This document shows, in pieces, positions 5,191 to 50,746 of a DNA stretch of 64,000 nt. Each line of letters begins with the position of its first letter. The stretch's first letter is position 1. The notes beneath the pieces are model-generated. The model worked only from the letters and a program-made list of their open reading frames with translations. It did not search any database and was not told where the DNA came from. Origin of the DNA: an uncultured Bacillota bacterium. GTDB lineage: Bacteria > Sysuimicrobiota > Sysuimicrobiia > Sysuimicrobiales > Segetimicrobiaceae. Position numbers and translations under genes: made by a program. The stretch covers positions 296,089 through 360,088 of the forward strand of contig CAWDRG010000005.1 of NCBI GenBank assembly GCA_963804645.1. The letters are read 5' to 3'.

Positions 5191-5344
5191 TCGCCTCCGG
5201 ATCGCAACGCCCTGCCGGCGCGCCGCGCGCCCCCTAGTACTACAAAGTCACGATTCTGGCAGGATTTTGCCCGCATGTGCCGAACAGCGGTAGTCGCGTA
5301 CGCATACATCGCACCTCTTGTCGCAGCAGACGTCGTCGTAGCAG

Positions 5345-6564
5345 GTGTCGCCGATGGCCAATGCGCCGCCTTTTGCCGATCCCGATCTGCGTCAGCGGTT
5401 GATCGAGTACCTCACGGCCGTCCTGCCGGAGTTGGGCCGCAAAGATCGCCGACCGTGGGCGCAAGCGTATGTGCGCGGCTTGCTGCTGGAAGGCGAGCGG
5501 AAATCGATCGAACCCATGGCCAAGCGCTTGCCGGACGGCAATGTGCAAGCCATGCAGCATTTCATTGGAAAGAGCCCGTGGCCGTATGAGCCGGTCCGCC
5601 GGCGGTTGGCTGGTGTGTTGTGCGCGGAAATGGGCTCCGGGCTGTGGATCGTCGATGACACCGGGTTTCCCAAGCAGGGCAAGCATTCCGTCGGGGTGGC
5701 GCGGCAGTACTCGGGCACGTTGGGCAAGGTGGCCAACTGCCAAATCGCGGTCAGCCTGCACCATGCCACGACGCTGGCGAGTCTGCCCATCGACTGGGCG
5801 TTGTACCTGCCGGAAGCCTGGGCCGCGGATCGCGCGCGCTGCGCCCGCGCGGGCGTGCGGCGGCGTCCGTGGACTACCGCCCCAAATGGCGGTTGGCGCT
5901 CGAGATGATCGATCACGCTCGACAGTGGGGCCTGGGGGACCAACGCGTCGTCGCCGATGCTGGCTATGGCACCATCGCCGATTTCCGTGCGGGCTTGCGG
6001 GAGCGGCAGTTGCCCTATGCCGTGGGCGTCGAATCCGGCACGGGCGTGTGGATGCGGTATCCGCGACGTCGGCGGCACCCACCCACCGTGCGCGGCCGGC
6101 CGCGTACGCGCTGGGACTACGGGGGCCAGCGGCCGCCCAGCGTCCTCGAGGTGGCGCGCGCGTTGCCAAAAGCCGCTTTTCATACTGTGACGTGGCGCGA
6201 AGGGAGCCAGGGCCAGCTCCGGTCGCGCTTCGCGCACGTCCGCGTCTGACCGTCCCACGGCTTTCATGAGGGCAAGCCGCCGGAGGCCGAACAATGGCTG
6301 CTCATCGAGTGGCCGGCCGACGCCGCCGAGCCGACCAAATACTGGTTCGTCACCGGCCCGCGGCGGCTGTCGCTGTTGCCACTGGTGCGCTGGGCGAAGG
6401 CGCGCTGGCGAATCGAGCAAGATTATGAACAGTTGAAGGGCGAACTGGGCCTCGACCACTTCGAAGGACGCCGCTGGCTGGGCTGGCATCATCACGTGAC
6501 GATGACCACAATGGCGTACGGGTTTCTCGTGCGCGAACGGCTTCGTCCCCTCGGGAGTAAAAAA
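5345..6564 (+). pseudogene. IS701-family transposase, main part (frameshift about 5865, TGA at 6247-6249, interrupted at the A-run)
   Basis: Motifs RKSIEPMA, IVDDTGFPKQGKHSVGVARQYSGTLGKVANCQ, VVADAGYG, RWRIEQDYEQLKGELGLDHFEGR and WHHH. Confidence 0.93.
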
Positions 6565-6567
6565 GGT

Positions 6568-9500
6568 TCATCCGGCATTTTCGGGAATTCCAGGAAACGC
6601 GGCCATGATCTTCAGGAAGAAGTAGCCATCGTCTCGGTAGCCGTACCCCATGCGCTTGAGGACCTTGATCTTGTGGTGGGTAGAGGACGGCCTCGGATCG
6701 ACCCTTGCGCCGTCCTCCCCCCGCAGAACCCGGCGTGCAGGTTTCCCGCACCGGGCTCCCCAGAGCGACATTCACGCCTCGGCCTCGTCAGACCGTCGGA
6801 TGTAGAGTCTTCGGGCGTGGCAGTTCAAACCACGAGCGGCTCCTGAGGTAGCTCCAGAACAACCGGTGCCATTGGCCGCGCCGACGCAACGTTCTTAGCC
6901 ACTGGAGCTGGACCTCATGACAGACCCAGTCCAACTTCCGCTCGCAGTGGTGTAGGGCGAAGTACTGGTAAAATCCCCGCAGCATCGTCGTAAGGTGAGC
7001 CTGTTGCGCCCGGCGATTCCAGTGCATATGGCTCCTGAGCCATTCATGGGTGCGATCCAGAAACGTCCTGCAGCTGTCGTGTGCCGGAATGCGCACCACG
7101 GCGAACTTGCCCCGCCGGTCCCTACCGCACACGTGCTTGAAGCCCAGAAATACGAACGTGCCTGGCTTCTCTCCATGTGCGGCGGCCCGCTTTCGGGCCT
7201 CTCGCCCAAACAGCAGTAGGCGCGTCTTCTCTGGTTTTAACTCCAGGCCGAACTTCTGCATCCGCTCCGCCAGTTCGCGGCCGAAGGCGTTCGCTTCCGC
7301 CTGATGCTCGAAACATACCACGAAGTCGTCCACAAACCGAATCAGGTGAGCGGCCCCTTGACAGCTCCGCTTGAACCGTCGCTCGAACCAGAGGTCGAGG
7401 ACGTGGTGCAAGTAGAGATTGGCGAGCACGGGGCTGATCGGATTGCCTTGCGACACGCCCTCCCTGTTTCGGACGACAACTCCGTCGTGCATCACCCCGG
7501 CCCTGAGCCACTTGCCAATGAGCCTCAGGATTACGGGATCGGCGATGCGATGGGCCACCATCTTCCGTAACCAGTCGTGATTGATGCGTGTGAAGTACCC
7601 GCAAATATCCGTCTCGAAGACGTACTGTGCTTTCCCCGCAATCAGATGGCCGCGAAGATCTCGCAATGCCTGGTGCGGGTTACGCCCGGGCCGGTATCCG
7701 TATGAGCACTCCACGAAGTCCTGCTCGTAGATGGCGCTGAGAATCCGCGCCACTGCGCGCTGCAGTAACCGGTCTTCCACCGTGGGAATGCCGATCGGGC
7801 GCATAGCCGACGTGTCCCCAGGTTTGGGGATGTCTACCCGTCGCACCGGTGGAGCCTGATACCGCCCTGCTTTCAGTCGTTCCCAGAGATCGACGACCCG
7901 TATCTCCAGATCGCGCTCGAACTGCGCGCATGTCTCTCCATCCACTCCGCTGGCACCCCGCCGGTTCATCTGCTGCCAAGTTTCTTTCAGAAACTCTGGC
8001 GTCAGAATGTGCGCCAGCGACGTGAAGCGGCACTTCGGGTCTGCCTTGGCTTTGATCGCTATCCCGGCCAGTCCGGTGGTCACCCTGATCCTCCCTCTGA
8101 AGGTGGAGGGGATGTTTCCCCGACCAAGGTCGTACGCTCTGCCCCGCCGCTTCCCCATGTACGCGGCTCTCCCGCGCTCCGAGTACTACCAGCGGGTCCG
8201 ACTTCCACCGCGGCGTTTGCCTCTCTTCGGTCGAACCATCTCGATCGGCATACTCGATCCACTCGATCAAGACCGCGGTGGATCTCCCAGGTCCCTCGAC
8301 GCGTCCGTCTCCGTCCGTGCCGTGCTCTCAGACCCCGCCGGGGTCTCCGGCATCCTCGCCCTAACGGATGCGTACTGTTGCCTTCCACGATAACAACCGT
8401 GTCGGCCCCCGGATTAGGAAGTCACGAGGCTCAATCGCTTCCTTTGCAGTACGGCCCGGACGTCGCCCTGTCTACGCTTAGCCCATGTCGTTACCTCCAT
8501 GAGCCCAAGACTCGGTTCCCGGTGGGTGGCTGGCCCTTGCCGGGGCGGGAATTGCACCCGCTGGACGCGCCAGATTTGTCCTGGCGCGCTGTTGATGCCC
8601 TCGAGGAGGCTGGTGTGTAACGGATAGCGACAGTGCGCGATGATCCCGGGGAGCCGCATCTTGAGATGGCGGGCAAACGTCTTGAGGGGTTCAATGCGAC
8701 TGCGGATGGCACGGTGGTACCAGTCGGTGAAGAAGCGGGTGGCGGCGCCAGGATAGGTATAGTCCCACATCTGCTTGAGATCATCCTTCAGCACGTAGAC
8801 GGCCGCAAGCCGCCGGTTGGCTGCCAAGAGGTCCTGGAGTCGTACGCGATCCTCCGGTTTGACGTTCTCACGATTGCGCAAGAGGAGCCACCGCGCGCCT
8901 TTGATCACCTTGCGGGCTTCTTTGTCGCGCCGCACGCGATTGGCTTCGTCCACGCGCACCCGGTCAATGACTTCGCGCCCGTACTTGGCGACCACGTGGA
9001 AGAGGTCATAGACAAGGACCGCGTGCGGACAATGGGCGCGCACTTCTTCTTCGTAGGCCGTGTTCATATCCATCACCACCGCCTGCAGACGCTTGCAGCC
9101 CTCGCCACCTAACAGCGCGAAGAAAGGACGGACGTCGTCGCGACTCCGGCCTTCGCCGACCCAGAGCACGCGTTTGCGCCGGGGTTCGACCACCACCGTG
9201 GCGTAGCGGTGGCCCTTTCGCAGGGCGAATTCATCCATCGCAATCGTTGTCACGTTGGACAGGTCCACCGGGAGCAACTGCTCTGCCAACGCGGCCACGT
9301 CCAGGTTTTTCACGGTGTCCCAGTCGAGGCCGTAGAACTCTGCCACGTGCTTCACCGGCAGGATGCGGCAGAGCCGGACCACGCTCTCCGCCAGGCGCTT
9401 GGTCACCCGGTCCCAGGCCGACAGCCAGGACAGGGCCTCGATTTTGGGGCCGCACGTGGGACAGGCAACGCGGTAGCGCGGCACCCATACGTGAGTCTCG

Positions 9501-9721
9501 GCGTCGAGCAGCGGCAGATCCCGGATGCAGCGGACCACCATCTCATGCGCCTTCGCCGTCTCTTGGCCGCACCCGGAGCACCGGAAGGTCCGCTTCTCGC
9601 GGGCCAGCGTGATCTCCACCCGCGGTTTGCCGGCTCCCGTCGTTGGTTCGATGCGCTCCACCAGCTTCACCCGATAGCATTCCCACCCGACCAGCACATT
9701 GGTAGACTGATCATGAGGCAA
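6568..9721 (-). CDS. ISL3 transposase, join(8590..9721, 6568..6674); 412 aa after intron removal
   Basis: Zinc finger CSGCG/CPTCG, IAMDEFALRKGHRY, VVMDM and YDLFHVV. The splice junction restores LEGINNKIKVLKRMGYGYRD in frame (1239 nt). Confidence 0.9.
6675..8589 (-). mobile_element. Group II intron 1 (1915 nt) in the ISL3 transposase gene
   Basis: 5' end GCGCGCCAGG; domain V GAGCCCGGTGCGGGAAACCTGCACGCCGGGTTC; domain VI ending CTACCCACC. Removal restores the exon frame. Confidence 0.9.
6788..8158 (-). CDS. ltrA: Group II intron reverse transcriptase/maturase, no endonuclease domain
   Basis: RT motifs ASGVDG, RPIGIPTVEDR, SYGYRPGR, GVSQGNPISPVLANLYL and FVDD, plus an X/thumb region. No C-terminal HNH. 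The true start is probably downstream of 8158 (VTTGLAGIA). Confidence 0.93.
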   Translation of the reverse strand: MGKRRGRAYDLGRGNIPSTFRGRIRVTTGLAGIAIKAKADPKCRFTSLAHILTPEFLKETWQQMNRRGASGVDGETCAQFERDLEIRVVDLWERLKAGRYQAPPVRRVDIPKPGDTSAMRPIGIPTVEDRLLQRAVARILSAIYEQDFVECSYGYRPGRNPHQALRDLRGHLIAGKAQYVFETDICGYFTRINHDWLRKMVAHRIADPVILRLIGKWLRAGVMHDGVVVRNREGVSQGNPISPVLANLYLHHVLDLWFERRFKRSCQGAAHLIRFVDDFVVCFEHQAEANAFGRELAERMQKFGLELKPEKTRLLLFGREARKRAAAHGEKPGTFVFLGFKHVCGRDRRGKFAVVRIPAHDSCRTFLDRTHEWLRSHMHWNRRAQQAHLTTMLRGFYQYFALHHCERKLDWVCHEVQLQWLRTLRRRGQWHRLFWSYLRSRSWFELPRPKTLHPTV

Positions 9722-10017
9722 GGTGCTCCCCCTTCCCTGAAGCGCCGTGTTCGCAGCACGTGCTCAAGGATAGGGGTGTGGTACCTTGCCTTCAACCTAT
9801 ACGGCTATCCCGGTTTTGCCTGAAGAACCGTAAAAAAACCATAATGGCAAAAGTAGCATCGGCGGCATGTGCGACCACTGATGTCGAGGATTCATCCTTA
9901 GGCATTCTGAAGATCAACGACGGCGAAGTGACGCGTCAGGCACTCGAGCACAGCAGTGATCATTGTACGCAAATCAGTTCGAGTCGTGAACGCGATAGAG
10001 AGACGCGTCGTGGAAGA

Positions 10018-10254
10018 CTATAGGGGCTTGCTCGGGGCGGAGGTTTGCCAGAGCTGTTCCAGTCGGGTGAGGAATGCCTCAGGCGCTCTTCGGTATCGCG
10101 CTCTCTGACGTCGAGGTTCCTGACTCGCGGCCCAACGTTGCATCTCCGTCCGGTATTGGTCGGTGGGAACGTGAGCAAACCATTCGATCAGGACGTCTGG
10201 AGGCAGATCGACTGCATATACCGCCAATGCTCCGTACCGCATAATGTAGCCCTC
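10018..10254 (-). pseudogene. C-terminal piece of the same transposase, displaced by the cargo element
   Basis: Removing the insert gives the in-frame RKSW(D/E)GYIMRYGALAVY...RARYRRAPEAFLTRLEQLWQTSAPSKPL*. Confidence 0.8.
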
Positions 10255-10291
10255 GGTAATGGTAGCGTATGAAACGCTACCACTACCGAGG
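10251..10291. repeat. Terminal palindrome, left (18-bp arms, one mismatch, 5-nt spacer)
   Basis: CCTCGGTAATGGTAGCGT-ATGAA-ACGCTACCACTACCGAGG. Confidence 0.9.
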
Positions 10292-10700
10292 TCTGGGTGG
10301 TGGGAGCGGCAGCGGTGGTGGCACCACGCCCGGCGGAGGCAGTCCCGGGGGTGGGAGTCCCACTCCGGGTGCGAACTCCGGTCCTGGAAGCAGCGGTGGG
10401 AACGGGGGAAACGAGCTCCGTGGCCCCCACTTCTCCGGCCAACACTGTCATTACTATATGGCCCGTAACTCCGGCGCCCGCGCCGACGACGCCGGCGGTC
10501 CCGGCAGTGCCTGCTGCACCGACACCGGTTGCGGCGACACCGGCAGTGGGCCGACACCCGCGAGGCCTCCAGTGGCGCCGGCGGCCGCTCCTGCGCCAGC
10601 GGCTCCGCAGCGTGCTGGGTTCGGCCCCCCCGTGCTCGGAGGTAGCGGGCCGACTGTGGTACTCGGCGCCCCGCGTCAGCACGGCGCCGGAACATGCCGC
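10290..10700 (+). pseudogene. Gly/Ser- then Pro/Ala/Thr-rich low-complexity coding fragment (cargo)
   Basis: GGGSGSGGGTTPGGGSPGGGSPTPG and VTPAPAPTTPAVPAVPAAPTP tracts in adjacent frames; no clear start. Confidence 0.35.
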
Positions 10701-11066
10701 TCTCAGGGCGGTTCAAGGACAGCCGACCAAGTTACCATTTGGGGGCATGTCGGAAACAAAGCGCTCCCTAAATCACGCTCGGACGCTGGATTGGAACGCT
10801 CATGGCTTCAATGGGGGCGATTTTGTTCGGGTGGAAGGTCGAGTAGTTGGAGAGCGCCTGGCACTTTCAGTTCGCGGTGCGGCCGGAGAATCGGGATACC
10901 GCTGCTCATCTGGGGCGCCGGTACGGGTGGTGCGCCTGTCTTGCAAAAAGCGGATTCCAGCGTCGATTCTGAGGTTACGAGCCGAACGACGGCACGGTGC
11001 CGGACATCCCGGCAGCGAGACGTGCGTCACGCGGTGGGACGGCCCGCTGAGCCCGTGACAACGCAT

Positions 11067-11096
11067 CGGGGAGCGAGTGCGAACCCTCGCTCCCCG
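11067..11096. terminator. Hairpin downstream of the PEP-CTERM gene, probable terminator
   Basis: CGGGGAGCGAG-N8-CTCGCTCCCCG, about 50 nt after the stop. Confidence 0.55.
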
Positions 11097-11146
11097 TCAA
11101 TTTGAAGAGACTTGGTCGCGTTCCTTAACGCTTTACCGGTCTCCGA

Positions 11147-11791
11147 TTAGCGCCTCACCTTGCGGCGAAGCAGACCGGCGGCGCCGACCAGTCCGAAGGC
11201 GAACATCGAGAGCGAACTCGGTTCCGGTACGGGATTAGGGGCGATCTGGCCGGCTGAGATCTGTCCCTCCAGATCAAACCATGCGGTGCCAGTGTTCGCC
11301 AAACCGCTGCTGCCTCCCACGAGAACGGTGCCGCTGTCCAGGCTCGGGCTGATGTTAGCAAAAGTGGCGCTCGCGCTCTCGTAGTCATTTGGGTCGGTAG
11401 ATGTGAAGGAGCCGCCGCACTGAGCGGCCGTTGGGCTGGGAGAATAAGTGCCGATGCATGCACCGTCGCCGTCAAAGCCAAATACTCCGCTACCCACGCC
11501 GCCGGTGATCGCAACGCTCTTCAGTGTGCCACCCGACGAATTCAGAACGCCGATCAAGGTGTCTTCGATGCCGTCGAAGGGCCCCTGATCAGGCGATGCC
11601 GTGGTGACATTAAACCCCGTGGCTACGTCTGAACTGTTGACCGATGTAACCGTAAGCAGCAGTTCGCATCCATTAGTGTCATTACCGACAGGCGGGCACT
11701 CGGTAAAGGAGGCGGCATACACTGCGGGGGTGACTGCCCAGAGAAGCACCGCTACCGCAGTCAGCGCAATACCCCATCTTATCGTCCTCAT
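11147..11791 (-). CDS. PEP-CTERM (exosortase-sorted) surface protein
   Basis: Signal peptide MRTIRWGIALTAVAVLLWA...VYA; C-terminus PVPEPSSLSMFAFGLVGAAGLLRRKVRR; AAGGAGGT SD. Confidence 0.93.
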   Translation of the reverse strand: MRTIRWGIALTAVAVLLWAVTPAVYAASFTECPPVGNDTNGCELLLTVTSVNSSDVATGFNVTTASPDQGPFDGIEDTLIGVLNSSGGTLKSVAITGGVGSGVFGFDGDGACIGTYSPSPTAAQCGGSFTSTDPNDYESASATFANISPSLDSGTVLVGGSSGLANTGTAWFDLEGQISAGQIAPNPVPEPSSLSMFAFGLVGAAGLLRRKVRR

Positions 11792-12247
11792 GCACTTACC
11801 TCCTTGATCGCTGTGGTCGCTGTGGCATTGCTGGGTGGGCTACGGCATCCCCCCTCTCGTTCCGGGGCGACGAGGATCGCGTCTGCGGAGCGCTGACGCC
11901 CTCGGCGCGGAGTCTGACCTCGGAATGGGGCTCGCTGTCCGAACCCATCCTCCATCGAACTCGAATGTGCTTTCCCGTCCCACGGGGGAAATCTTTGTAT
12001 CACTTGAATGAAACAGGCCACAAAAACGAACGACCGCTGGTCGGTGCGGGTTACGAACGTGGCTGCCGAGGCGATTCTGATTACTTCCTTTGAAGGAGGC
12101 TTTGGAAGGAGGCTTTCTGGACCGGGGCGGCAGCAGTCCGGCGCGCACGTCATCCCGCGAGATGCACAGCTTCGCCCCGCGGCGTCGGTTCACTCGATTC
12201 GGTCCGCGCGGATGGCCGAGCCCAGCGCCGGGCCTGGTCGAGGCTCT

Positions 12248-12756
12248 CTAAACGGGCGGTCCGAAGCGGGTGCGCGAGCGTCGCAGCGCGGCACGCAGCC
12301 CCGGGCGGGCCAACTGAAGCGGCGCGCGACCCACCGCGTATCGTACCGTGAGCGGCGGCCGGCGGTGTTTGGTTGCGATCAGGCTTGCCACCTCGGCCCA
12401 GATCGCGCTCAGCAATCCGTTCACGGCGTGTCGGCGGGGCGCCGTGCGCCGATGCGCCAACGCGTGACGGAGCGCGCCGCGGAGCGCTTCGGTGCTCGTG
12501 GTGGGAGCGTCGGACGCGACCGCCACTCGGCGCGCCGCCCAGGCCAAGGCATCTCGCACCGTGTCCTGCCGCACGATGTGCGGGCATCGGGCGGCCGCGC
12601 CGATCATCTGGTCGGGAGCGAAAGCCTCGTCGGAGGCGTGCGCGAGCTGCGTGACGGTGAGCGCCTCGACGAGGGCACGAGCGTCCTCTCTCAGCGGACC
12701 GGTGGCAGCGGTCTGGGGGAGCTGCGTCAGGGCCTTGTCAATGATTAGCCGAACGG
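12248..12756 (-). other. Possible truncated hypothetical ORF (cargo), open from the right palindrome
   Basis: ORF 12248..12787 has its start inside the terminal repeat; helical, Ala-rich, family not recognised. Confidence 0.3.
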
Positions 12757-12791
12757 GGTAGTGGTAGCGTTCCCCAAACGCTACCACTACC
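12757..12791. repeat. Terminal palindrome, right (perfect 15-bp arms, 5-nt spacer)
   Basis: GGTAGTGGTAGCGTT-CCCCA-AACGCTACCACTACC. Confidence 0.92.
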
Positions 12792-13760
12792 TAGCCATCC
12801 CATGACTTGCGCCCCGTGGTTCGGCGGTGTGCGCTCTTGGCGTGGCGCAAGAACCGCTCCAGATCGTTGTTCGTCCGCGGGATCTCGGGGTGCAGAAAAC
12901 AGGTGAACAGCGTGTCGCCGAATCCCTGGGTGTACTTTTGGAAGGATTCCGCGAACAGTTCGTGCGCTGGCTGAGTCACCGCGGCCTGTGCGACCGCGGC
13001 CATGAGCGTGCGCACTCCCATCTTCGCCTGCGCCGCAGCATCATGGGGAAGCACGCCAGGGTATTTCTCTGGATCGATGACCCGAGCGAGACCCAGTAAC
13101 CACGTGTGTTGCTGCTTGAGCGTGGCGTAGTCAGCGCCGTAGATCTGGTGGCGAGTTGCGATGTGGGTCAGGGTCCGCATCATGGGTACGGGCCGGACCG
13201 CAAAGCACCGCTGCAGGGAGGCGTAGATACGCTCCAGATTCTCATAGGCGCGGATGCCCCCGGGTGCAAGTGGCGGCAGTCCGTTGGATCCCGTCGAGGG
13301 AGAGCACCAGCCCGCCGTTCTGCTCGATTTGGCGGCGCACCGCCTCGACTTGCTGGCCGGCCGTGCACCCGAGAAGTGCGAAGTACGCTTCGTAGAGGCC
13401 CTGGACGTGGCGCGCACTGATGATGACCCCGCGCTGGCCGAGCTCGGCATGGATCTCAGCCCGCGTGCAGTGGTCCACCGTCCGGAGGCGCCCCACCGTG
13501 ACCAGCACGTCCATGCCGTACGTCGAGCCCTTGAGGCTCAAGCCTTCGGCGACGGCGGAGCGGTACACGCGGCGGTCGCAAGCGGCAGTCCAGCATCGAT
13601 ACCCGAGGCTCCCGGCCCAGAGCACTTCGGACAGGCCGATGATATGTTTGCGCCAGACGGGGTGACTGTACACCAGAGGCGCCCCGCACACCAGACAGGT
13701 CCGGCATTCGGGGCGGAAGTAGACGCGCCGGGGAGCCGCAAACACACGCGCGCACCTCAC
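12792..13760 (-). pseudogene. Transposase of the 22-bp-TIR element, N-terminal and central part (apparent internal deletion with frameshift near 13283)
   Basis: CLVCG...CWTAAC zinc finger, YGMDVL and LVLSLDGIQ, then an abrupt frame switch to GLPPLAPGG...HPEIPRTNNDLERFLRHAKSAHRRTTGRKSWDG. Confidence 0.8.
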
Positions 13761-14146
13761 GGGCGCTTGCGGATCACCTCCGCAGGATCGAGTTGGGCGG
13801 CTTGCCGAAGGCGCTCCAAGAGACCTTGGAGCTCGACGTCGAGCGCGCGCAGGTGTCGAGCATGCGCCCGCCATCGCCGATACGCGCGGGCCGCTGTGCT
13901 GGCCGGACCCGCCTTGGTCGGCGCCACGGGGAACACGTGCGGCGTGCCCGCACGAAACACTGAGAGGCACCAATAGGGGCCGTGTTTCTTCCCCCGCATG
14001 CAGCGGCACCCCGGCTTCCCGCACACCCGGTAGCGCTTGAACAAAGAGCCGGTCAGAGTCGGCCCGATCGCTAACGCCTCCTCCAAGACAGCGGTTCTCA
14101 GGCGGTTCACCGCTTGCACCTTGGTGCGCAGGGCCTTGGGACCCAT
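13757..14146 (-). CDS. DUF6788-like small Cys/His protein, transposase-associated
   Basis: Motif GSLFKRYRVCGKPGCRCMRGKKHGPYW. GGAGGTG SD upstream. The stop overlaps the GTG of the next gene. Confidence 0.75.
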   Translation of the reverse strand: MGPKALRTKVQAVNRLRTAVLEEALAIGPTLTGSLFKRYRVCGKPGCRCMRGKKHGPYWCLSVFRAGTPHVFPVAPTKAGPASTAARAYRRWRAHARHLRALDVELQGLLERLRQAAQLDPAEVIRKRP

Positions 14147-14304
14147 CCGCCACCTCCGTCTTCTCTATCTGCCACTAGTATTCCTTTTCATAATGCCAGA
14201 TCTCAAACCAAAAAGAAAGGAGCATGCGAAGGAGCGCCGCCGAGCACTCCAGTCACCTGCTCCAGTGCCTGTCTATGGCCGTGATGCTACTTTTGCCATT
14301 ATGG

Positions 14305-14437
14305 AAAAAAAACGGCGCGCGTCCCCACCGTGCCGCAGGTGCGGGCCCAGCTCCAGTACGTCCTGAAAACCTGGACCGGTCGCTGCAGCGTCTGCGGTCA
14401 CCTCGTGCGCCGTCCGACCAAGAATGACCCATCTTAG
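14305..14437 (+). pseudogene. IS701-family transposase, displaced C-terminal piece
   Basis: Resumes at the A-run. One frame reads PTVPQVRAQLQYVLKTWTGRCSVCGHLVRRPTKNDPS*, ending just before the right IR. Confidence 0.75.
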
Positions 14438-14448
14438 ATGTGACTTTG

Positions 14449-16306
14449 GTCGAGTAGGACCAGCGATCGCTCGCTGGGACCCCTCTGCCGAACGGCTCGT
14501 ACGGATCTCCCGTAAGCCGCTCTACCCCATGCCGACTCGTGAGTCATCAGGAATATATCCGAAGAGAGTGGAGCCCCAGACGGCGGTAGAAGAATGTTTC
14601 AGAGTATCGCCGCCAGTTCGCCGTGCGCCAGCGTTTGGCCATGAAGGCCCGCAGCCTCCGAAGGATCCAGCGGTCCAGCGGCCTCCCGATCCGTCGCAAG
14701 TCGCCAATCCGGAAGAATCGTCCCCAACCGCGGAGCACTGGATTTAGCAGCGCCACGATCTCGTCCGCCCGACGCGGTTGGTTACGCCGCGTAAGATGAC
14801 GGACCTTGTCCCGGAGCCGCTGTATTGCTCGCGCCCGTGGCTGTAGGTGCAGTCCCTCCTCATCGCGCCAGAAGCGGAATCCAAGGAACTCAAATCCTTC
14901 CGTAATGTGAACGACCCGCGTCTTCGCAGGATGCAGTCGCAGTCCCAACTGCCCCTCCAGAATCTGGTGGACCTGCTCCAAGGCCGCCTCGGCGTCCTCG
15001 CGCGTTCGGCACACGATGACACTGTCATCAGCATACCGGACCGCGCGATGTCCTGCCGCGAGCATCTGATGATCGAAGGTGTTCAGAAACGCATTACTGA
15101 GCAGCGGCGAAACTACACCCCCTTGCGGGGTGCCCGCTACCAGGGTACGCTTCTTGCCCTCCTCCATCACCCCGGCCTGGAGAAACGCCTGCACGAGCCG
15201 GAGAATCCGCCCATCCGCCACCACCTCGGCGACTGCGGCCAGCAGCCGCGCATGGGACGCGGTGTCGAAAAACTGTTCAATATCGATTTCGACAATCCAC
15301 TCGCCCCCGTGATGCAGGCTCGCCATCACATCGCCAATGGCCTGATGCGCTGACCGTCCTGGACGAAACCCGTAACTGGTCTCCGCAAACCGCGGCTCAA
15401 AGTGCGGTTCCAGCCGCAGACGCATCGCCTGCGCCACGACGCGATCTCGTACAGCAGGGATCGCGAGGCCGCGACGACGTCCATCGGGTTTGGGAATGTA
15501 GACGCGACGCCCGGGCTGGGGCACATAGGCATCGTCCTTGAGGGCCGCCTGGAGTCCTTGCAACTCCTCATCCAAGTGTGCCTCAAATGCCTCAAGGCTC
15601 TGACCATCCACGCCCCACGTCCCGTGGTTCGCCTTGACCAGCGTCCAGGCCCGCCGCAGATTCGGCAGGTACCAGACCTTGTCGATGAGCGAGCCGACCT
15701 TGATCGGATGCACGTCCTCCGCCACTCCTCCTCCTTCCTGACCAGAGTCCTGTTGGTCGGGGTCTGCACCGGTCGCGGCTCGGGAGCTGCTCATGACAGA
15801 GATCCCTTACCCCGCGCTCGTCAAGCCGATCCCGCCTTCAGGCCACCAAGCATGGAGCGGGTCCCTTCGCTCTGCCAGGTTTCCCTGACCTCATCGCTAC
15901 GTCTGGACCCGTCCGACTCCTGAACGTGCATCGGGTTGGCTTTTCCCCTTCCGGGTTATACCGTCCCTACCTGTCCGCGCAGGACCGAACCCTACTCGCG
16001 ACAGGACACGCTCAGGCCTCCCCGGGTCATGCTGCTCTCTGTCCCACCATGCTGCCCGCACCCACGACTGATCCCCCCTGGTCTTCTCTGGATGCCCCTT
16101 CCTCCAGTACTAGCAGAGTCGGGCCTCCAGGGGTTCGCGCCGACCGGTTCGCCTGGCTTCGACAGCCTCGGCTGCGGCCTGGTGGTTTGCCTCAGGTCCT
16201 TCAGATTCCGCCTCGCGACGGACACCCTACCCTTTTCGGCTACGGTCCGCATCCAGCTGGACCGGCAGGTCTTTCACCTGCGAGAGAACAGCACTGCCGG
16301 GCACAC
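14449..16306 (-). mobile_element. Group II intron 2 (1858 nt) inserted inside the right terminal IR of the IS701 element
   Basis: 5' end GTGTGCCCGG; domain V GAGCGGCTTACGGGAGATCCGTACGAGCCGTTC; 3' end CCTACTCGAC. Removal restores a perfect 14-bp IR. Confidence 0.93.
14547..15794 (-). CDS. ltrA: Group II intron reverse transcriptase/maturase, no endonuclease domain
   Basis: SLIDKV, GVDG, IPAVRDRV, SYGFRPGRS, GTPQGGVVSPLLSN, YADD and LNPVLRGW. The real start is probably a GTG near 15713-15725. Confidence 0.94.
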   Translation of the reverse strand: MSSSRAATGADPDQQDSGQEGGGVAEDVHPIKVGSLIDKVWYLPNLRRAWTLVKANHGTWGVDGQSLEAFEAHLDEELQGLQAALKDDAYVPQPGRRVYIPKPDGRRRGLAIPAVRDRVVAQAMRLRLEPHFEPRFAETSYGFRPGRSAHQAIGDVMASLHHGGEWIVEIDIEQFFDTASHARLLAAVAEVVADGRILRLVQAFLQAGVMEEGKKRTLVAGTPQGGVVSPLLSNAFLNTFDHQMLAAGHRAVRYADDSVIVCRTREDAEAALEQVHQILEGQLGLRLHPAKTRVVHITEGFEFLGFRFWRDEEGLHLQPRARAIQRLRDKVRHLTRRNQPRRADEIVALLNPVLRGWGRFFRIGDLRRIGRPLDRWILRRLRAFMAKRWRTANWRRYSETFFYRRLGLHSLRIYS

Positions 16307-16311
16307 TAGTA

Positions 16312-17700
16312 CTAGGGTTTGGCGGGCGCGGACGGCGTGACGGTCGACGGCGCGTGGCTCGGCGTGATCGTCGAGCCGGGGCGTGTGGCCGGCGCCGCGC
16401 TGCCGGCGGGCGGCTGCAGGCCGAGAAAATCCTTAATCGGCTGCGGGAAGCTATCCAGCACCCCGGCCGCGAGCGTGTACTGGAGTCCGAGCGCGCGGTT
16501 CACCGCGACCCACCCGTTGTACTGTTTGTAAAACTGCACCGTGAATCTCGCGTCGGCGCCGCCGTCGGTCTGCACCTCGAACGCCGGGGCGGCCGCGAAC
16601 GAGGACGTCAGCGCCTGCACGCGGTCCGCGTCCATCAGGTTCACCGACGAAAACATGTCGGAGACGTTCTGATCGCTCAGGTCGCTCCCGGTAAACCCCG
16701 GGCCCTGACGGCGGACCTCGAGGGTCTTCCCGTTCCGGCGCCACGTGAACACGGTCAAGTCTTGAGGATTGTACGGCAGCACGTGGGTGCTGACGAGCGA
16801 GATCGGCGCGGGGGTCATCCGCCCGTCGAGGTCCGCGTCGAGCTCCATCACCGTGCGGCCGCCGGCGACCATCGCGTACGTCACCTTCGGCCCCTTCGCG
16901 AACAGCATCCGCAGGGGCTCCGGACGCCCCTTCATCGTGAGATCGAGCGTGACGTCCGGATGATCCAGCCCGTAGGGGGCCAGGTCGGTCACGCCGTCAT
17001 GGAACACCTTGCCGTCGGAGGTGGTGAGCGGGAAGAACAGATCCGTGACCTTGAAATCGTCGGCCGGCCACGGCCGGCTCCCCTCGATGCGCCAGCGGTC
17101 GGGGCCGGTGCGGTCCACGACCAGCGATTCCGTCGGCGACGTGATGCGCACCTGCTGGACGTCGGCGTTCGCGAAGTCCGCGAGGGTCTTCTGGCGGAGG
17201 TCCGCGGCGGTCTTCGTCAGCCCATCCTTCGCGGTGCTGTCGACGACGTACAGCGAGGTGCCGGGGTCGAGCTTGGCGTAGAGCGCGTTGCCGACCGGCG
17301 ACGGCTTCCCGAGCTCCACGGTCACCGATCGCCCGCCGGAAGTGCGCAGCGTCACGCGCACGGTCGGCCGGTCGAGGCCGTACGCCGCGAGATCGGTCGC
17401 GCCGCTGAGCGTCCGCTGGGGCACGATCCCGGTGACCGCGTCGAGGAAGTCCGAGACCGACAAGGAGGCCGCTGGGGTCTGAATCGGACGCGTGATCTGC
17501 CAGTGCGTGGGGTCGGTGCGTGACAGTTCGACCGTCTGGTTTGCGGTCGTGATCGTGATTCCGGTGATGTCGGCCTTCTTGAGCTGCACCAGATGGCTCG
17601 CCAGTTCCGCCCGCTGCGCCTGCGGCCGGTCCACCGCGAAGATGTACGCGGCGATCACCACCACGAGGCCGGCGAGGATGAGCGTCGCGCGGGGGGTCAC
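16312..17700 (-). CDS. DUF4340-domain exported protein
   Basis: N-terminal anchor and repeated DLAxYGLDxP motifs; follows the Gld-like ABC genes. Its TAG stop is part of the CTAG target. Confidence 0.85.
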   Translation of the reverse strand: MTPRATLILAGLVVVIAAYIFAVDRPQAQRAELASHLVQLKKADITGITITTANQTVELSRTDPTHWQITRPIQTPAASLSVSDFLDAVTGIVPQRTLSGATDLAAYGLDRPTVRVTLRTSGGRSVTVELGKPSPVGNALYAKLDPGTSLYVVDSTAKDGLTKTAADLRQKTLADFANADVQQVRITSPTESLVVDRTGPDRWRIEGSRPWPADDFKVTDLFFPLTTSDGKVFHDGVTDLAPYGLDHPDVTLDLTMKGRPEPLRMLFAKGPKVTYAMVAGGRTVMELDADLDGRMTPAPISLVSTHVLPYNPQDLTVFTWRRNGKTLEVRRQGPGFTGSDLSDQNVSDMFSSVNLMDADRVQALTSSFAAAPAFEVQTDGGADARFTVQFYKQYNGWVAVNRALGLQYTLAAGVLDSFPQPIKDFLGLQPPAGSAAPATRPGSTITPSHAPSTVTPSAPAKP

Positions 17701-42906: not shown

Positions 42907-43588
42907 CACACACACGTACTTGGAGCGGCTGCTTCCTCCCTGGTGGTTCGTCCTTCCGCGTCGCTGCAAGATCCCCGGCATGATCAGTCGTGAGGAGGCC
43001 CATTACTATCTTTGGCTGGGGCGCTACTACGAGGGGAAAGGCGAGGCCATAGAGCTTGGCCCGTGGCTCGGCCGATCGACGTTTTTCATCACACAGGGCC
43101 TGCTTAAGAGTCGCGCGTTTCTCAACAAGACGTTGCACGTATTCGACGATTTCATTTGGAAGAGTTGGATGGACCGTTACTACGCCGACCGGGATGACCG
43201 ACCGGCGGAGGGCGCATCGTTTTTGCCGCTCTTTGAGCGATACGTGAAACCGTTTGACCGAGTCCTCACGGTGGAGCGGAGACGCATTTCGACGTGGACC
43301 GGGAATGCCGACGTTCCCGGGATCGATTGGACCGGTCGACCCATTGAACTCATATACGTCGATTGCGGCAGAACGTTCGATGAAAACGAGGCCTGGTGGC
43401 GGATCTTTTCTCCTGCCTTCATACCCCGTCGCACGCTCATCGTCATGCAGGACTGGCAGACGTACAAGGAAACGCCGCCAAAATCCTACAATCAAACGAA
43501 AGAATTCACCGATAGCAAAGGGAAGATCCTTCGCCTGCTTCACGCCTTGCGCCGTGGAGGAGTGGGGACGTTCGTGTTCGAGGGTTGA
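42881..43588 (+). CDS. Putative class I SAM-dependent methyltransferase (Methyltransf_24-like)
   Basis: IELGPWLGRST, LHVFDDF and IELIYVDCG. Confidence 0.65.
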   Translation: MGSPRRMLDTHTYLERLLPPWWFVLPRRCKIPGMISREEAHYYLWLGRYYEGKGEAIELGPWLGRSTFFITQGLLKSRAFLNKTLHVFDDFIWKSWMDRYYADRDDRPAEGASFLPLFERYVKPFDRVLTVERRRISTWTGNADVPGIDWTGRPIELIYVDCGRTFDENEAWWRIFSPAFIPRRTLIVMQDWQTYKETPPKSYNQTKEFTDSKGKILRLLHALRRGGVGTFVFEG

Positions 43589-43857
43589 TCAGTGGTGTTG
43601 CCAACGACGCCCGAGGATTCATCGACTCACGGCCCCGCCATTAGGGGCGAGGGAGTCACACGTAGAGCGGCAGCGCGGAGCGCGTTATCGCAGGCGTCGG
43701 CTGGAGCAGTTCAGGTCCGTCTGCCTCCGTCGGCAGCTTACGGCTCCGTGCTTTCAGTCTGATACTTTTCCACCGCCTCTCATCAACCCGTGCGTGACGG
43801 TCTCCGTCATACGGCTTTCCAATATCTTCCGCAGGTCGCATGCTGCTTGTGCAAGGC

Positions 43858-46492
43858 TCAGGTACACTGAAACCCGACGCCGCCGCACAGCGTGGCCATC
43901 AGCACCCCCTTGTCGGTACTGCCGGTTCGGTAGGTCCGGCAGGTGAACCCGCCGGCGCACGTCGGAATGAACGTGGCGGGCGGATTGTCGGGATTCGCGG
44001 TCGTGTTCAGGGCCACGAGGCCGGAGTGGCCGCCGCCGGAAGTATAGTTGGGGGCCATGAGCCACTGCCTGCCGCTACCGTCCGTGTAGACGTCGATCCC
44101 CGGGGCGGCGAGCGGGTTGTTGTATGGGTTCGTGTCTCCGGTCGCGGTGATTTGTCCCGTCCGCCGCATGGTGGAGGGATTGTAGATCCGGATGCCGAGG
44201 TCGCCTTGGCTCACATAGATCCGCCCGCTCGCCTTGCGGACCTCGCAGATGCCACCCGCGACTGGCATCAAGGATCCCTGCGCGACGTTGGGCGGGTTTC
44301 CGAACCACCCGGCATGCTGAGACACCAGCTTGATAACAGTCGTCGATGCCGGCAGACCGACGGCGCCGGTCACCGGTGACGGGCCGAAGACCTGCGAGCT
44401 CCCCGTGTACTGATACTGCCCAAACACGCTCAACGTCGCCGCCAGCGGCGGCGCGGGCGGCAGTCCCGACACGATGATTGCATTGGACGGATTCGCCAGC
44501 GACAGTGCGTTTGACAGCGTCGACGTCCCGCAGCACACGCCGAAGGCGTCGAAGTAGGCGATCAGCATCCGGTAGGTGTACGGCGTCTCGACGCTCCCCC
44601 CCGTGCCCGCGGCGATGGTGGGTGCCGACACGAAGGTCATGAGCCGATCCGGAATATCCTCCGTCACGATCGGTGCGATGATGCCGAGGTTGCCGACCCC
44701 AAACGCCATGACGCCGAGCGCAGAATCCGCGACCCACAGCGTGGAACCCGGCACGCCGCTGGCGCCGTCCAGGAACATCCCCGTGTGCAACTGCGTCCCA
44801 AACGGCCCCGTGTACGTCGCAACCGGCGTGAGCGCGTACGACGGAGCGGACCCCACCGAGTAGGTCACGATCTTGAGCCACCCATAGGCGTTGACGACGG
44901 CGGTCAGATGCTTCCCGTCCCACGCGGTGTTGACAAGCGTCGCATCCCCATAGCACACGAGCGGCGTCATCGCGCCGTTCTGGCACCGGAACAGATAGTC
45001 GTTGCCGTTGTCTGCCGCACCGGGTGCGATCCACAACGTCGGGTCCGTGCCCCCCGCCGTGGTGCCGAACGGCTGCAGTCGGCTGCCGATCAGGGTGCCC
45101 ACGGTGCCAGTAGAGATCAGGTTGTCCCGCTGATCATGCACCTCATACGAGAAGCGGCACGTCGAATACACGTACTCGGCGGAGTCGCCCGCGACCGTCG
45201 TGGCCTGTCGCGTTTCCGCATTCGCGTAGCACGTCTGGAGTACGGCGGCCGCGCCGCCGGCGGCGACCTTCGAGACGTCGTAAATGACCGTGCCGCCTGG
45301 TCCCGGTCCCGTTCCCCCCTCGGACGAGAGCGCGAACTTGGTCCCGTCGGGGCTGACCGCCGTGTCGACGGCCGGACACGATATGGTGCCGCCCGGGCCG
45401 GACTGCGTCCATCCCGGAATGGTGGTGATCAGGCGCAGCGCATCCGCAGCCCCGATCGCGAGCACGTCTGTTCCCGATTGATTCGCGTCGCCCCACGTCG
45501 CGTACAGGAGATTGTGCACGCGGTCGAGTTTGAGGTTCCCGTACCCAGTTGCGCGCGCGGGCGCCTGGTAGACTGCGGCGCCGCCGATCAGCGCCGGCGC
45601 GGTCGGCGTCGTGAGGTCGTACGTCCGAATCACGTTCCCGTTCCCAGTGTACAGCCGGTTGCCGTTTGGCACGCCGACGTGCTGACTCGGCATCGTGGCG
45701 AGCAGCGCCGGTGCCGCCCCTCCGGCGAGGGGGGCCAGATTGAATAGGTACAGGTTCCCCGTTCCGTTGTCGCAGCACACGAGCCGTTGATTCGTCCGAT
45801 CGATCTCCATGCCGTAGACGCCGTTCCACTGCGCTGCCGACTGGAACGTGTACGTCGCGCCGGTCTGGATGCTCGTCGCGGTCAGCGTGCCCGGCTGTCC
45901 GTTGTGCGCAAGGTAGACGTACCCGCTGTCGATCTGTACCGACTTGGCTGACGCCGTTGAAGGGCTTTGGCCAATTCGCGTTTGCCATCGCCATCGTCGA
46001 GCCGTTGAGCACGTGTGCCTGCGGGACGATCGTGTTGTTGACCGCCACGTACCCCTTGAACTGCGCGCTTTTCCGCGGGTTGTTGTATACGGTGTTGTTG
46101 CAGGCGTAAGAGAACACGGTACTCTGCCCGCTCTGCGTGTCAATCCGGATGACCCCGCTGTCTCCCTCCTGGGTCGGTACGTACACGTACCGGCTGTCGT
46201 CACTGAAGGACGGGCCGCCCGCGAATCCCTGGAAGCTCGCTTTGGTCACGGGTCCCATGATCGCCGGTCCGGCATAGTTGCCATACACCGTCATGTCGCG
46301 AAGCTTCTGCCAGGTCCCCGTTGTGGTGGTCACCGATCCAGACCTGACGATCGGGGGCGCGGCGGGGTTCTGACTGGGCGCGGCGGACGCAACCCCGCCC
46401 ATCGCCTCGCCCAACCCAATGGCGACCGCCAAACGTGCGCCGTGTCGGAGCAACGTCCTACGGCTATAGGTAGACCGGCGAGTGTGTGTCAT
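43858..46492 (-). CDS. Tat-signal secreted beta-propeller-like (LVIVD-repeat-like) protein, copy 1; frameshift near 45945
   Basis: YSRRTLLRHG twin-arginine signal; repeated YD.T.PT.P.LIG and YVS.GD.GI.IY blades. The 3' end is approximate. Confidence 0.7.
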
Positions 46493-46900
46493 CTGATCGA
46501 TGCCTCCCCGGGCGCCGTCATACGACGGCGCCCTGTCGACGATGAGTGCGCCAAAAACCCGCCCATGCGGAAACCGGACCGGTCACGAAGTCACCGCGTT
46601 TCGTTGGCCTCCCCGACCGCACGACGAAGCGTCAAGGCAGCCATCCCGTCTCGTCATTGTACTGTGCACCCCGAAGCGTTATGCCCGTCAGAACTTCCGT
46701 TCCGGACGCCGACGGAAAAAAATGTTCGATCGAGGGTGCGCCGCGGGTCCGTGCGCGTGCGGACGTGCGTGGCGCACACGATGGCGTGACTCCTAGGCGT
46801 CTCGCGCAGCGAGCCCAGCGCGAGACGGCGTCTAGAGGATGCCCACGAGCGGTATAACCAGGAGGACGACGCACGGAACGAGTGCGGTGGCATGACTACG

Positions 46901-47265
46901 GCATCGTTTTTGCCGCTCTTTGAGCGATACGGGAAACGGTGTGACCGAGACCTCACGGTGGAGCGGGGACGCATTTCGACGTGGGCCGGGAATGCTGACG
47001 TTCCAGAGATCGATTGAACCGGTCGACCATTGAACTCATATACGTCGATTGCGGCAGAACGTTCGATGAAAACGACGCCTGGTGGCGGATCTTTTCTCCT
47101 GCCTTCATACCCCGTCGCACGCTGATCGTCAAGCAGGACTGGCAAGCGTACAAGGAAACGCCGCCAAAACCCTACAATCAAACGAAAGAATTCACCGATA
47201 GCAAAGGAAAGATCCTGCGCCTGCTTCACGCCTTGCGCCGAGGAGGAGTGGGGACGTTAGTGTAG
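46901..47265 (+). pseudogene. Duplicated 3' half of the methyltransferase gene, with new stop codons
   Basis: Copy of 43214-43588 with TGG>TGA near 47016 and an earlier TAG. Confidence 0.8.
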
Positions 47266-47492
47266 AAGGGTTGATCAGTGGTGTTGCCAACGACGCCCGA
47301 GGATTCATCGACTCACGGCCGCGCCATTAGGGGCGAGGGAGTCACAAGTAGAGCGGCAGCGCGGAGCGCGTTATCGCAGGCGCCGGCTGGAGCAGTTCAG
47401 GTCGGTCTGCCTCCGTCGGCAGCTTACGGCTCCGTGCTTTCAGTCTGATACTTTTCGACCGCCTCTCATCAACCCGTGCGTGACGGTCTCCG

Positions 47493-50177: not shown

Positions 50178-50482
50178 CTGATCGATGCCTCCCCGGGCGC
50201 CGTCATACGACGGCGCCCTGTCGACGATGAGTGCGCCAAAAACCCGCCCATGCGGAAACCGGACCGGTCACGAAGTCACCGCGTTTCGTTGGCCTCCCCG
50301 ACCGCACGACGAAGCGTCAAGGCAGCCATCCCGTCTCGTCATTGTACTGTGCACCCCGAAGCGTTATGCCCGTCAGAACTTCCGTTCCGGACGCCGACGG
50401 AAAAAAATGTTCGATCGAGGGTGCGCCGCGGGTCCGTGCGCGTGCGGACGTGCGTGGCGCACACGATCGCGTGACTCCTAGG

Positions 50483-50512
50483 CGTCTCGCGCAGCGAGCC
50501 CTGCGCGAGACG
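50483..50512. terminator. Strong GC hairpin between paralogous genes (weaker copy near 46798-46827)
   Basis: CGTCTCGCGCAG-CGAGCC-CTGCGCGAGACG; no clear U-tract. Confidence 0.4.
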
Positions 50513-50746
50513 GCGTCTAGAGGATGCCCACAAGCGGTATAACCAGGAGGACGACGCACGGTACGCGTGCGGTGGCATGACTACGGCATGCGAACCCACC
50601 TTCATCCCCGGGTTCCTCCAGCTCGGGCCCCAGAAGAACCCGTCCTACCCTTCCTGGAAACGGCGCCCACCGGAATGGCCGCACCTGCGGACGAGTTCTC
50701 ATCCACCTCTTCATCCTCGGCTGCCCGGACGGCGTGGCCGCCCGCC

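Follow-up and report, generated by a model that had tools for sequence, protein, structure and literature searches.

A IIC-like group II intron at the tips of an IS701-family element: a 7-bp EBS1 and a target site that spans the CTAG duplication

A stretch of 64,000 nt from an uncultured Bacillota bacterium (assembly GCA_963804645.1, contig CAWDRG010000005.1, positions 296,089 to 360,088; hereafter, the window) carries a group II intron of 1858 nt (14449..16306, minus strand) that splits the right inverted repeat (IR) of an insertion sequence (IS) of the IS701 family 5 nt from the IS tip. Judging from comparison of sequences, we consider it highly probable that the intron is active, endonuclease-less, and IIC-like, that its retrohoming is directed to the tips of a single subfamily within the IS701 family, and that it reads its target mainly by RNA-DNA pairing. 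The evidence comes from the anatomy of the intron, from covariation of two exon-binding sites (EBS1 and EBS3) with the exon, from the target duplication of the IS, and from the distribution of the copies, in which the intron arrived independently in diverged copies of the IS. Below, the source genome of the window is called G000, with C2, C5, C9, C11, C15, C17, and C22 as its contigs; G002, G004, G006, and G011 are other genomes of the order; L numbers designate intron loci, those from L033 to L065 being found in metagenomes.

Intron anatomy

Read on the minus strand, the sequence across the intron copy is ...AAACCCTAGTACTA|GTGTGCCCGG...(intron)...CCTACTCGAC|CAAAGTCACATC; the same junctions shown with other flank lengths are ...AAACCCTAGTACTA|GTGTGCCCGGCAG...CCTACTCGAC|CAAAGTCACATCTAAG. 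The intron starts with GUGUGCC, its GUGUG occupying 16306-16302, and ends with ...CUACUCGAC. The ends at 16306 and 14449 are supported in three ways. Two other copies in the genome have their ends at the identical bases, one contig of a DNA metagenome fuses 14448 to 16307 with exactly 1858 nt skipped, and many relatives have equal ends.

A domain V hairpin of the 34-nt type, with the AGC triad and a 2-nt bulge (GAGCGGCUUACGGGAGAUCCGUACGAGCCGUUC), is located at 14522-14490 on the minus strand and has three compensatory pairs in the fold of an 11-sequence alignment. The same fold places domain VI at 14452..14485 on this strand, with a bulged A at 14455, the seventh nucleotide from the 3' end; compensatory changes support this domain too. 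The intron-encoded protein (14547..15794, minus strand, 415 aa) has reverse transcriptase (RT) and maturase domains and lacks an endonuclease domain: matches to RVT_1 (1.3e-40) and GIIM (3.4e-17) were found and no other domain, while the model of group II RT/maturase proteins, TIGR04416, scored 391.5 bits at a cutoff of 300. With a 5' end of the GUGYG type, the branch A of domain VI, domain V, the open reading frame for RT and maturase in domain IV, and pairing between EBS1 and the intron-binding site 1 (IBS1) all present, the stretch 14449-16306 is an intact group II intron.

Contigs of RNA libraries (X15 and X16, from one study) match internal parts of the intron with 0-1 differences. They leave the exon junction uncovered and speak neither for nor against splicing; carry-over of DNA is possible. 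We also observed that several contigs of DNA and RNA metagenomes match a 32-nt stretch of domain I (16197-16228) and then diverge, so that this stretch is probably a motif common to other introns of the community.

Covariation of EBS1 and EBS3 with the exon

The sequence TAGTACT (16112-16106), situated within CUCU-GC-UAGUACU-GGAG, is exactly complementary to the exon bases from -7 to -1, AGTACTA (16313-16307). This complementarity had been pointed out in a first-pass annotation of the window, in which all coordinates and sequences turned out to be correct, and which had proposed the 7-mer as a candidate EBS1. Folding bears the proposal out. In the RNAalifold consensus of 13 sequences (100 pairs, 28 of them with compensatory changes) the 7-mer appears in a terminal hairpin loop within a domain I of ~290 nt, where it takes up intron positions 195-201 and is part of the 9-nt loop capping the CUCU/GGAG hairpin, and it covaries with the 5' exon. 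Thus, the 7-mer UAGUACU (16106..16112, minus strand) is EBS1.

For the covariation analysis, relatives were gathered by means of the intron protein. A scan of genome contigs with the single protein found no relative; a scan of genome contigs with the protein alignment found relatives that were only 36-63% identical, none of them from the lineage residing at IS701 ends. A scan of metagenomes with the alignment of the clade produced 33 loci (L033-L065), with introns 80-100% identical in DNA. The protein family makes up a tight clade with 79-96% identity, after which the identity falls to 54% or less.

The 33 loci share the conserved hairpin CGACUCUGC-(7 nt)-GGAGGAAGGGG, the 7-nt loop of which varies. 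Among the relatives we found 11 loop sequences, each fitting the last bases of its own 5' exon; examples of loop and exon are GCUAACG and ...CGTTAGC, UUGAGGC and GCCTCAA, AUCCCAA and TTGGGAT, CCAUGAA and TTCATGG, as well as AGUUGAA and TTCAACT. In the 16 aligned full-length introns the exon positions -1, -2, -3, -4, -6, and -7 pair with the intron positions 195, 196, 197, 198, 200, and 201 in 16, 16, 15, 14, 14, and 15 cases, respectively, and the paired columns hold up to four different bases. For the set of 24 junctions, at least six of the seven positions were paired in 21 and all seven in 17. The same level of pairing (at least 6/7) was reached by 14 of the 16 distinct combinations of site and loop, compared to 8 of the 160 non-cognate combinations. 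The match between EBS1 and the exon is, therefore, more than chance.

The exon position +1 covaries with intron position 245 (15 Watson-Crick pairs in 16 introns, all four bases seen), which identifies the corresponding base of the window intron, the G at 16062 (minus strand, unpaired in the fold), as EBS3. Its partner IBS3 is the C at 14448, the first base of the 3' exon, as both the junction reading and the covariation indicate; the 3' exon is the remaining part of the right IR (CAAAGTCAC, 14448-14440). IBS1, AGUACUA (16307..16313, minus strand), consists of the AG of the CTAG duplication (16312-16313) and the IS tip TACTA (16307-16311); this division follows from the junction reading, from an empty site, and from the CTAG found at free IS ends, both described below.

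Among the 16 introns no column of domain I covaries with the exon positions from -8 to -14, hence there is no detectable EBS2, with the reservation that the T-rich stretch at -8..-12 in many relatives limits the power of this search. Columns 305 and 331 were tried as EBS2, as they track exon position -9 in 14 of 16 introns, but they are situated in domain II and follow the structure of the clade; they were rejected. The exon position -8 itself is T in 15 of 16 sequences.

The host IS and its target duplication

The host IS extends over 5238..16311 of the window on the plus strand, as delimited by matches to the uninterrupted copy on contig C2 of G000, which measures ~1.47 kb. The matches cover 5238-~6525 and then ~14303-14448 together with 16307-16311. 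The window copy spans 11 kb only because an ISL3-family element and a 4.47-kb element are nested inside it and interrupt its body at ~6558-14304. The transposase gene is on the plus strand and its frame is broken in the window, with an N-terminal piece left at 5345-5908; the intron lies antisense to this gene and is read from the outside of the IS towards its interior. An intact relative is present on contig C23 of G004, a congener, in an IS copy without intron, where the transposase has 445 aa and covers model positions 2-362/363. The NF033540 model (cutoff 150 bits) gave 206.7 bits for the N-terminal piece in the window, 276.5 for the C2 copy, and 426.8 for the G004 copy, and the Pfam family DDE_5 also matches the transposase.

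Elements of the IS701 family have terminal inverted repeats and make a short, 4-bp target duplication. Here the IRs have 14 bp (TACTACAAAGTCAC; the left one at 5238-5251, the right one at 14440-14448 plus 16307-16311) and CTAG stands on both sides. By these sequence features and by its model scores, the host element is a member of the IS701 family, the identity that the first reading of the window had given it.

The locus of G004 that is orthologous to the insertion site has both flanks 90% identical and lacks the IS; one CTAC stands in place of the CTAG-IS-CTAG of the window. Therefore, CTAG is the 4-bp target duplication and the IS proper begins at TACTAC. The same empty site substantiates an earlier suggestion that IBS1 combines 2 nt of CTAG with 5 nt of the IR. 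CTAG directly precedes every one of 12 distinct free IS ends (12/12) in three genomes; in the literature we found no statement on a preference of IS701 for CTAG. The right copy of the duplication is at 16312..16315, where the DUF4340 gene lying upstream (16312-17700, minus strand) uses its TAG as stop codon. At the left end of the IS, an unoccupied site identical in sequence, CTAG followed by TACTA|CAAAGTCAC, is present on the plus strand at 5234..5251 and reads CTAGTACTACAAAGTCAC.

Copies of the intron and their independent arrival

We found three copies of the intron in G000, in the window, at C2:214438-216295 (1 difference), and at C11:245720-247465 (2 differences). Their insertion point in the right IR is the same to the base, and the three IS copies that they occupy are the only full-length ones of the subfamily. 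The introns are 99.9-100% identical, compared to 79.2% for the host IS copies of C2 and the window and 97.9% (27 mismatches) for those of C2 and C11. The occupied sites are also of two types, AGTACTA|CAAAGTCAC and AGTATTA|CTATGTCAT, the latter with one G.U pair. Near-identical introns in diverged IS copies and at differing sites mean that the introns arrived separately, and this pattern in the sequences points to independent retrohoming events.

The C11 copy leaves its contig at intron position 113, and a piece on C22 with nt 1-111 holds the third 5' junction. At C22:2552-2662 these 111 nt are followed by unique sequence 69% similar to C11:242217-242665. Either C22 and C11 represent one copy split by assembly, or C22 is a truncated fourth insertion.

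In the order as a whole, the junction of TAGTRYTA with the 5' end of the intron occurred in 3 of 94 genomes, G000 (three times), G002 (once), and G011 (twice), and free ends of the IS were found in G000 (5), G006 (4), and G004 (3). The two junctions of G011 have the same 5' exon motif and are counted by the 5' exon only; the intron there is 82% identical, its interior is unassembled, and its 3' junctions are on other contigs. For L015, the G011 junction with a full 3' end, the 3' exon had no match to the IS701 transposase. Of the metagenome loci, L033 and L035 are right-end insertions and L034 is an insertion at a left end, with the intron standing against the left-end sequence CAAAGTCACATTACCAGCAGG, followed by the whole IS from left to right and by a free right end. 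Since the L034 junction has only 11 nt in common with the other junction types, it is presumably not an artefact of repeat assembly. The 554-nt 5' flank of L034 is 100% identical to C2 of G000, while the IS is 98.3% identical and has the opposite orientation; the L034 intron begins with GUUUG instead of GUGUG.

All copies of this lineage (three in G000, one in G002, and those at L033, L034, and L035) stand at TAGTAYTA| beside IS701-type ends. The idea of an intron targeted to IS701 termini, put forward for the window copy by the first-pass annotation, thus extends to the flanks of the other copies, with no member of the lineage at an unrelated site. On the other hand, the relatives with other EBS1 sequences reside at unrelated sites, and none of their 3' exons matched the IS701 transposase in tblastn searches, so that the association with IS701 is peculiar to this lineage and does not extend to the clade as a whole.

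Four loci with the EBS1 sequence AUCCCAA (L044, L045, L046, and also L038) are located inside an arm of a long palindromic unit, AAAACCT-ATCCCAAAAC...GTTTTGGGAT|AGGTTTT, the central ~60 nt of which occur in both orientations. This palindrome may be another repeat, or a target resembling a miniature inverted-repeat transposable element, of the intron clade.

In DNA from peat, 14448 is joined to 16307 in 1 contig of run X1 with a depth of 4.3; this is a borderline case, with 30 letters on the shorter side and 90% likeness. Contigs of X1 and X2 end at 16312 and have before this position a sequence resembling the left flank of the window, which amounts to an IS-less allele. Given the intron-less joint and the IS-less loose end, both the intron and the IS appear to be polymorphic.

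Proposed mechanism

In the mechanism that we propose, the EBS1 loop UAGUACU pairs with the AG of the CTAG duplication and the first five bases of the IS, TAYTA, and the EBS3 base, G, pairs with the sixth IS base, C. The T at -8, which is part of CTAG and is conserved throughout the clade, would probably contribute to recognition, and no EBS2 is used. Because the IS always duplicates CTAG and has inverted ends, the same site of ~9-10 nt is present at both ends, on opposite strands. Integration would take place by reverse splicing into single-stranded DNA at the replication fork, with the nascent lagging strand serving as the primer. Reverse splicing into the lagging-strand template is described in the excerpts of PMC4615759 as experimentally shown for endonuclease-less introns, including RmInt2 (the literature is cited from excerpts throughout). 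Such dependence on the fork would account for the restriction of the intron to the end on the G-rich strand in G000.

Choice of site and end, and alternative explanations

Pairing of 7+1 bp alone cannot explain the distribution of the intron, since G000 contains 98 free pairing-competent sites with the sequence AGTACTAC and 20 with AGTATTAC. When T at -8 is added, five free TAGTAYTAC sites are left in G000, four of which are IS ends (three of them left ends, the other from a decayed copy); the fifth, C17:773008, is unrelated to the IS. In this genome of 68.6% G+C, the 9-10-nt motif made of (C)TAG and the IS tip hardly occurs outside integrated copies. At C5:29849-32360 the same IS is present in decayed form, with the free end CTAGTACTA|CAAAGTCAC, and is interrupted by a repeat of ~1.3 kb, 86% identical to C9:515550-516829.

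Several results weigh against the proposed explanation or against parts of it. In the Rfam scan at gathering scores, the intron 14449-16306 was not called. The scan by E-value gave a weak match to D1D4-4 only (28.8 bits, E 5e-4), and RF00029, the model of domains V and VI, had no match even at E<=1; for this reason domains V and VI were demonstrated by alignment folding. As the Rfam thresholds miss the intron, the group II call rests on its anatomy and its homologues. With respect to intron class, seven positions of IBS1 and EBS1 covary instead of the 3-4 bp of class C, and folding of the 5' exons gave no consistent hairpin of the class C type upstream of the IS-end insertions. Some junctions of relatives pair poorly, that of L037 at 4/7 and those of L059 and L063, which share one site, at 3/7.

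The same holds for the choice of the end. In G000, the intron occupies the right ends of 3/3 full-length copies and the left ends of 0/3, even though the positions from -9 to +9 are identical. Two other sites are free though pairing, a right-end fragment with full pairing at C17:733869 (one G.U pair) and the non-IS 9-mer at C17:773008. The vacant left ends and these two sites show that pairing alone does not predict occupancy. The first-pass annotation had anticipated two homing sites for every insertion of the IS; the identity at both ends and the filled left end of L034 agree with this, but G000 uses right ends only. The GC skew of the plus strand is negative at all three occupied sites (-0.04, -0.015, and -0.03; C5 is uniformly negative over 360 kb) and all three introns of G000 are on the minus strand of their contigs, hence on the G-rich strand and co-oriented with the movement of the fork. 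This orientation fits reverse splicing into the lagging-strand template, with the qualification that GC skew is only a proxy for the direction of replication in this organism and that an agreement of n=3 has a chance expectation of 1 in 8.

The main rival on the use of the ends assumes an extra determinant in the right end of the IS, either distal contacts of the protein with the 3' exon or a local DNA structure, the left end being no real site. It would account for the right-end bias in G000 and for the right-end insertions at L033 and L035, as well as for the vacancy of the 98+20 pairing-competent 8-mers; both right-end types also share an GTCTAGGATGAGTCAT-like sequence from ~+8 that the left ends lack. 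We nevertheless regard such a determinant as unlikely. The L034 intron abuts left-end sequence, and the two types of occupied right end differ at +2, +4, +9, and +10. The vacant 8-mers are already dealt with by the T at -8, which cuts the free sites to the five named above, and a strand bias of replication, for which excerpts of PMC4615759 provide a precedent, explains the use of one end with no additional determinant.

That every copy occupies one and the same base in a single IS family would also be expected if one ancestral IS had gained the intron and the unit of IS and intron had then been copied by transposition or duplication. We give this explanation hardly any credence: the introns are 99.9-100% identical where the IS copies harbouring them show 79% and 98% identity, IBS1 and the 3' exons vary from host to host, copies of this IS are found unoccupied in G004 and G006, an intron-less allele of the window end is present in a metagenome, and an end split 5 bp from the tip would hardly be usable by the transposase. 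It fails because the introns arrived separately in IS copies that had already diverged. Very improbable, too, is an ordinary class C intron that requires a stem-loop or terminator in the 5' exon and a short IBS1, and that hits IS701 ends because the IS lands beside hairpins. Such an intron would be in keeping with a protein closest to IIC RTs, with the T-run just before IBS1 in many relatives and the upstream hairpins of some, with the position of the window copy 5 nt past the stop codon of a gene, and with the 5' exons of G011, which fold into stable hairpins. However, the 5' exons of the IS-end insertions are unrelated flanks (that of C2 folds with only -1.7 kcal/mol), the EBS1 pairing has 7 bp and not 3-4, and the insertion point is fixed to the IS tip and not to a feature of the flank. 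Hairpin dependence as the main determinant was rejected, as no consistent hairpin is present upstream of the IS-end insertions.

Intron class and comparison with known systems

Among solved structures, those nearest to the intron protein are IIC RTs (7uim, 4.3e-76; GsI-IIC 6ar1, 3.9e-68; 5hhl; 5hhj), followed at a larger distance by the IIB maturase 6me0 (9.4e-46) and IIA LtrA (2.4e-39). The pairing of EBS3 with +1 and the lack of EBS2 are traits of class C; in the relatives T-runs are often found before IBS1 and hairpins sometimes upstream. On account of the 7-bp pairing and of the lack of a consistent 5' stem-loop, we describe the intron as IIC-like instead of assigning it to class C; by its sequence features the class assignment is not clean.

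Published IIC introns have, according to excerpts of PMC1702495 and PMC3522654, an IBS1 of 3-4 bp and a 5' stem-loop, either a terminator or attC. In comparison with class C introns such as B.h.I1 (same sources), the intron is alike in using EBS1 and EBS3 only, with no EBS2, in its small domain I and its endonuclease-less protein, in its residence outside genes, and in having relatives located after T-runs. It is different in that 7 bp covary and the IS-end sites are without a consistent 5' hairpin, where class C introns have 3-4 bp and a stem-loop.

The homing of introns into IS inverted repeats is already known from RmInt2 of Sinorhizobium meliloti GR4 (PMC4615759, excerpts). As described there, the genomic copies of RmInt2 are all in the terminal IRs of ISRm17, every IS has in these IRs a pair of putative sites located on opposite replication strands, and homing is biased to the lagging-strand template. 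Like RmInt2, the present intron is endonuclease-less, has all its copies in the IRs of one IS, and consists of near-identical copies that imply a recent spread. RmInt2, on the other hand, is a class D (IIB) intron with EBS1, EBS2, and EBS3 and with a requirement for distal exon contacts (-20/+5), and its IBS region (-14..+1) comes from the IR itself (PMC4615759, excerpts). The intron described here is IIC-like, with a 7-bp EBS1, no detectable EBS2, and an IS701-family host; its 5' exon is mostly outside the IS and its IBS1 straddles the duplication and the IS tip, so that the site exists only after integration at (C)TAG.

Targeting of IS elements is a common strategy of introns, and IS-targeting introns have particular IS elements as their retrohoming targets, which they enter at a defined position (PMC3522654, excerpts); the target of RmInt1 is ISRm2011-2 (PMC4615759, excerpts). 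With RmInt1, E.c.I1, E.c.I3, E.c.I4, and E.c.I9 the present intron has in common a multicopy IS as a safe and abundant site and a copy number capped by that of the IS, while for those introns the excerpts of PMC3522654 and PMC4615759 describe no site that is placed at the very tip and includes the duplication. In our literature search no paper connected group II introns with IS701. What sets the present case apart is the IIC-like class with a single long EBS1, the IS701 host, the site spanning the duplication, and the natural series of re-targeted EBS1 loops.

Consequences for the IS

With the intron inserted, 1.86 kb lie between the outermost 5 bp of the IR and its remainder; this should block the use of this end by the transposase, and we infer that an occupied IS end is disabled. 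The transposase frames are broken in the occupied copies of the window and C2, the occupied C11 copy matches in several frames, and the frame is intact in the free G004 copy. The broken frames of occupied copies are consistent with a disabled IS end.

A more far-reaching explanation appears possible to us, though we advance it tentatively and with considerable doubt. The lineage might be obligately hyperparasitic: its site would arise from the integration of the IS, so that it would attack only integrated copies, lock each of them, and act as a natural brake on the IS701 subfamily. The clade might then be a IIC-derived branch where the stem-loop was replaced by a long, freely reprogrammable EBS1 of 7 bp and a fixed T at -8. 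In G000, all three full-length IS copies are both occupied and broken in their transposase frames, and the 11 natural variants of EBS1 occur among introns 80-93% identical.

Other features of the window

An ISL3-family element (6566..9835, minus strand), flanked by an 8-bp duplication, GTAAAAAA, is nested in the IS701 copy and is outside the targeting system. It sits exactly at the edge of the 4.47-kb element, so that mobile DNA is nested four layers deep in this one IS701 copy. A second, unrelated group II intron (6675..8589, minus strand), found in a single copy in the genome, is inserted in the ISL3 transposase gene. It has Rfam matches to D1D4-6 (163.4 bits) and to domain V (48.6 bits), encodes a protein of 456 aa, and has the 5' end GCGCG and not GUGYG; the intron-free ISL3 copies at C9:1381375-1382760 and on C15 fix its insertion site as CATCAACA|ACAAGATC.

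The 4.47-kb element (9839..14304, no strand assigned) has perfect 22-bp terminal inverted repeats, CCATAATGGCAAAAGTAGCATC, is inserted in an A-run of the IS701 copy, and is unique in the genome. Among its open reading frames are those of a PEP-CTERM protein and of a DUF6788 protein, besides a stretch with weak similarity to IS66; none of them could be clearly identified as a transposase. Elsewhere in the window, 43214-46900 and 46901-50590 form a tandem duplication of ~3.69 kb, with copies 92-99% identical (repeat families D1-D7).

Significance

The intron, whose host is a peat or soil bacterium, would be a second, mechanistically different case of a retroelement specialised on the termini of DNA transposons, and one where the choice of target is readable directly from natural covariation. 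If the IS end is truly disabled, the intron would be a self-limiting parasite of a parasite that helps to fossilise copies of the IS. The related introns with differing 7-nt EBS1 sequences and no EBS2 make a natural series for the retargeting of IIC-type introns, and this series may reveal whether a long EBS1 can replace the usual DNA hairpin. Should the reading of the lineage as a hyperparasite and of the clade as IIC-derived be true, these introns would offer a compact, hairpin-independent targeting scaffold with a single guide.

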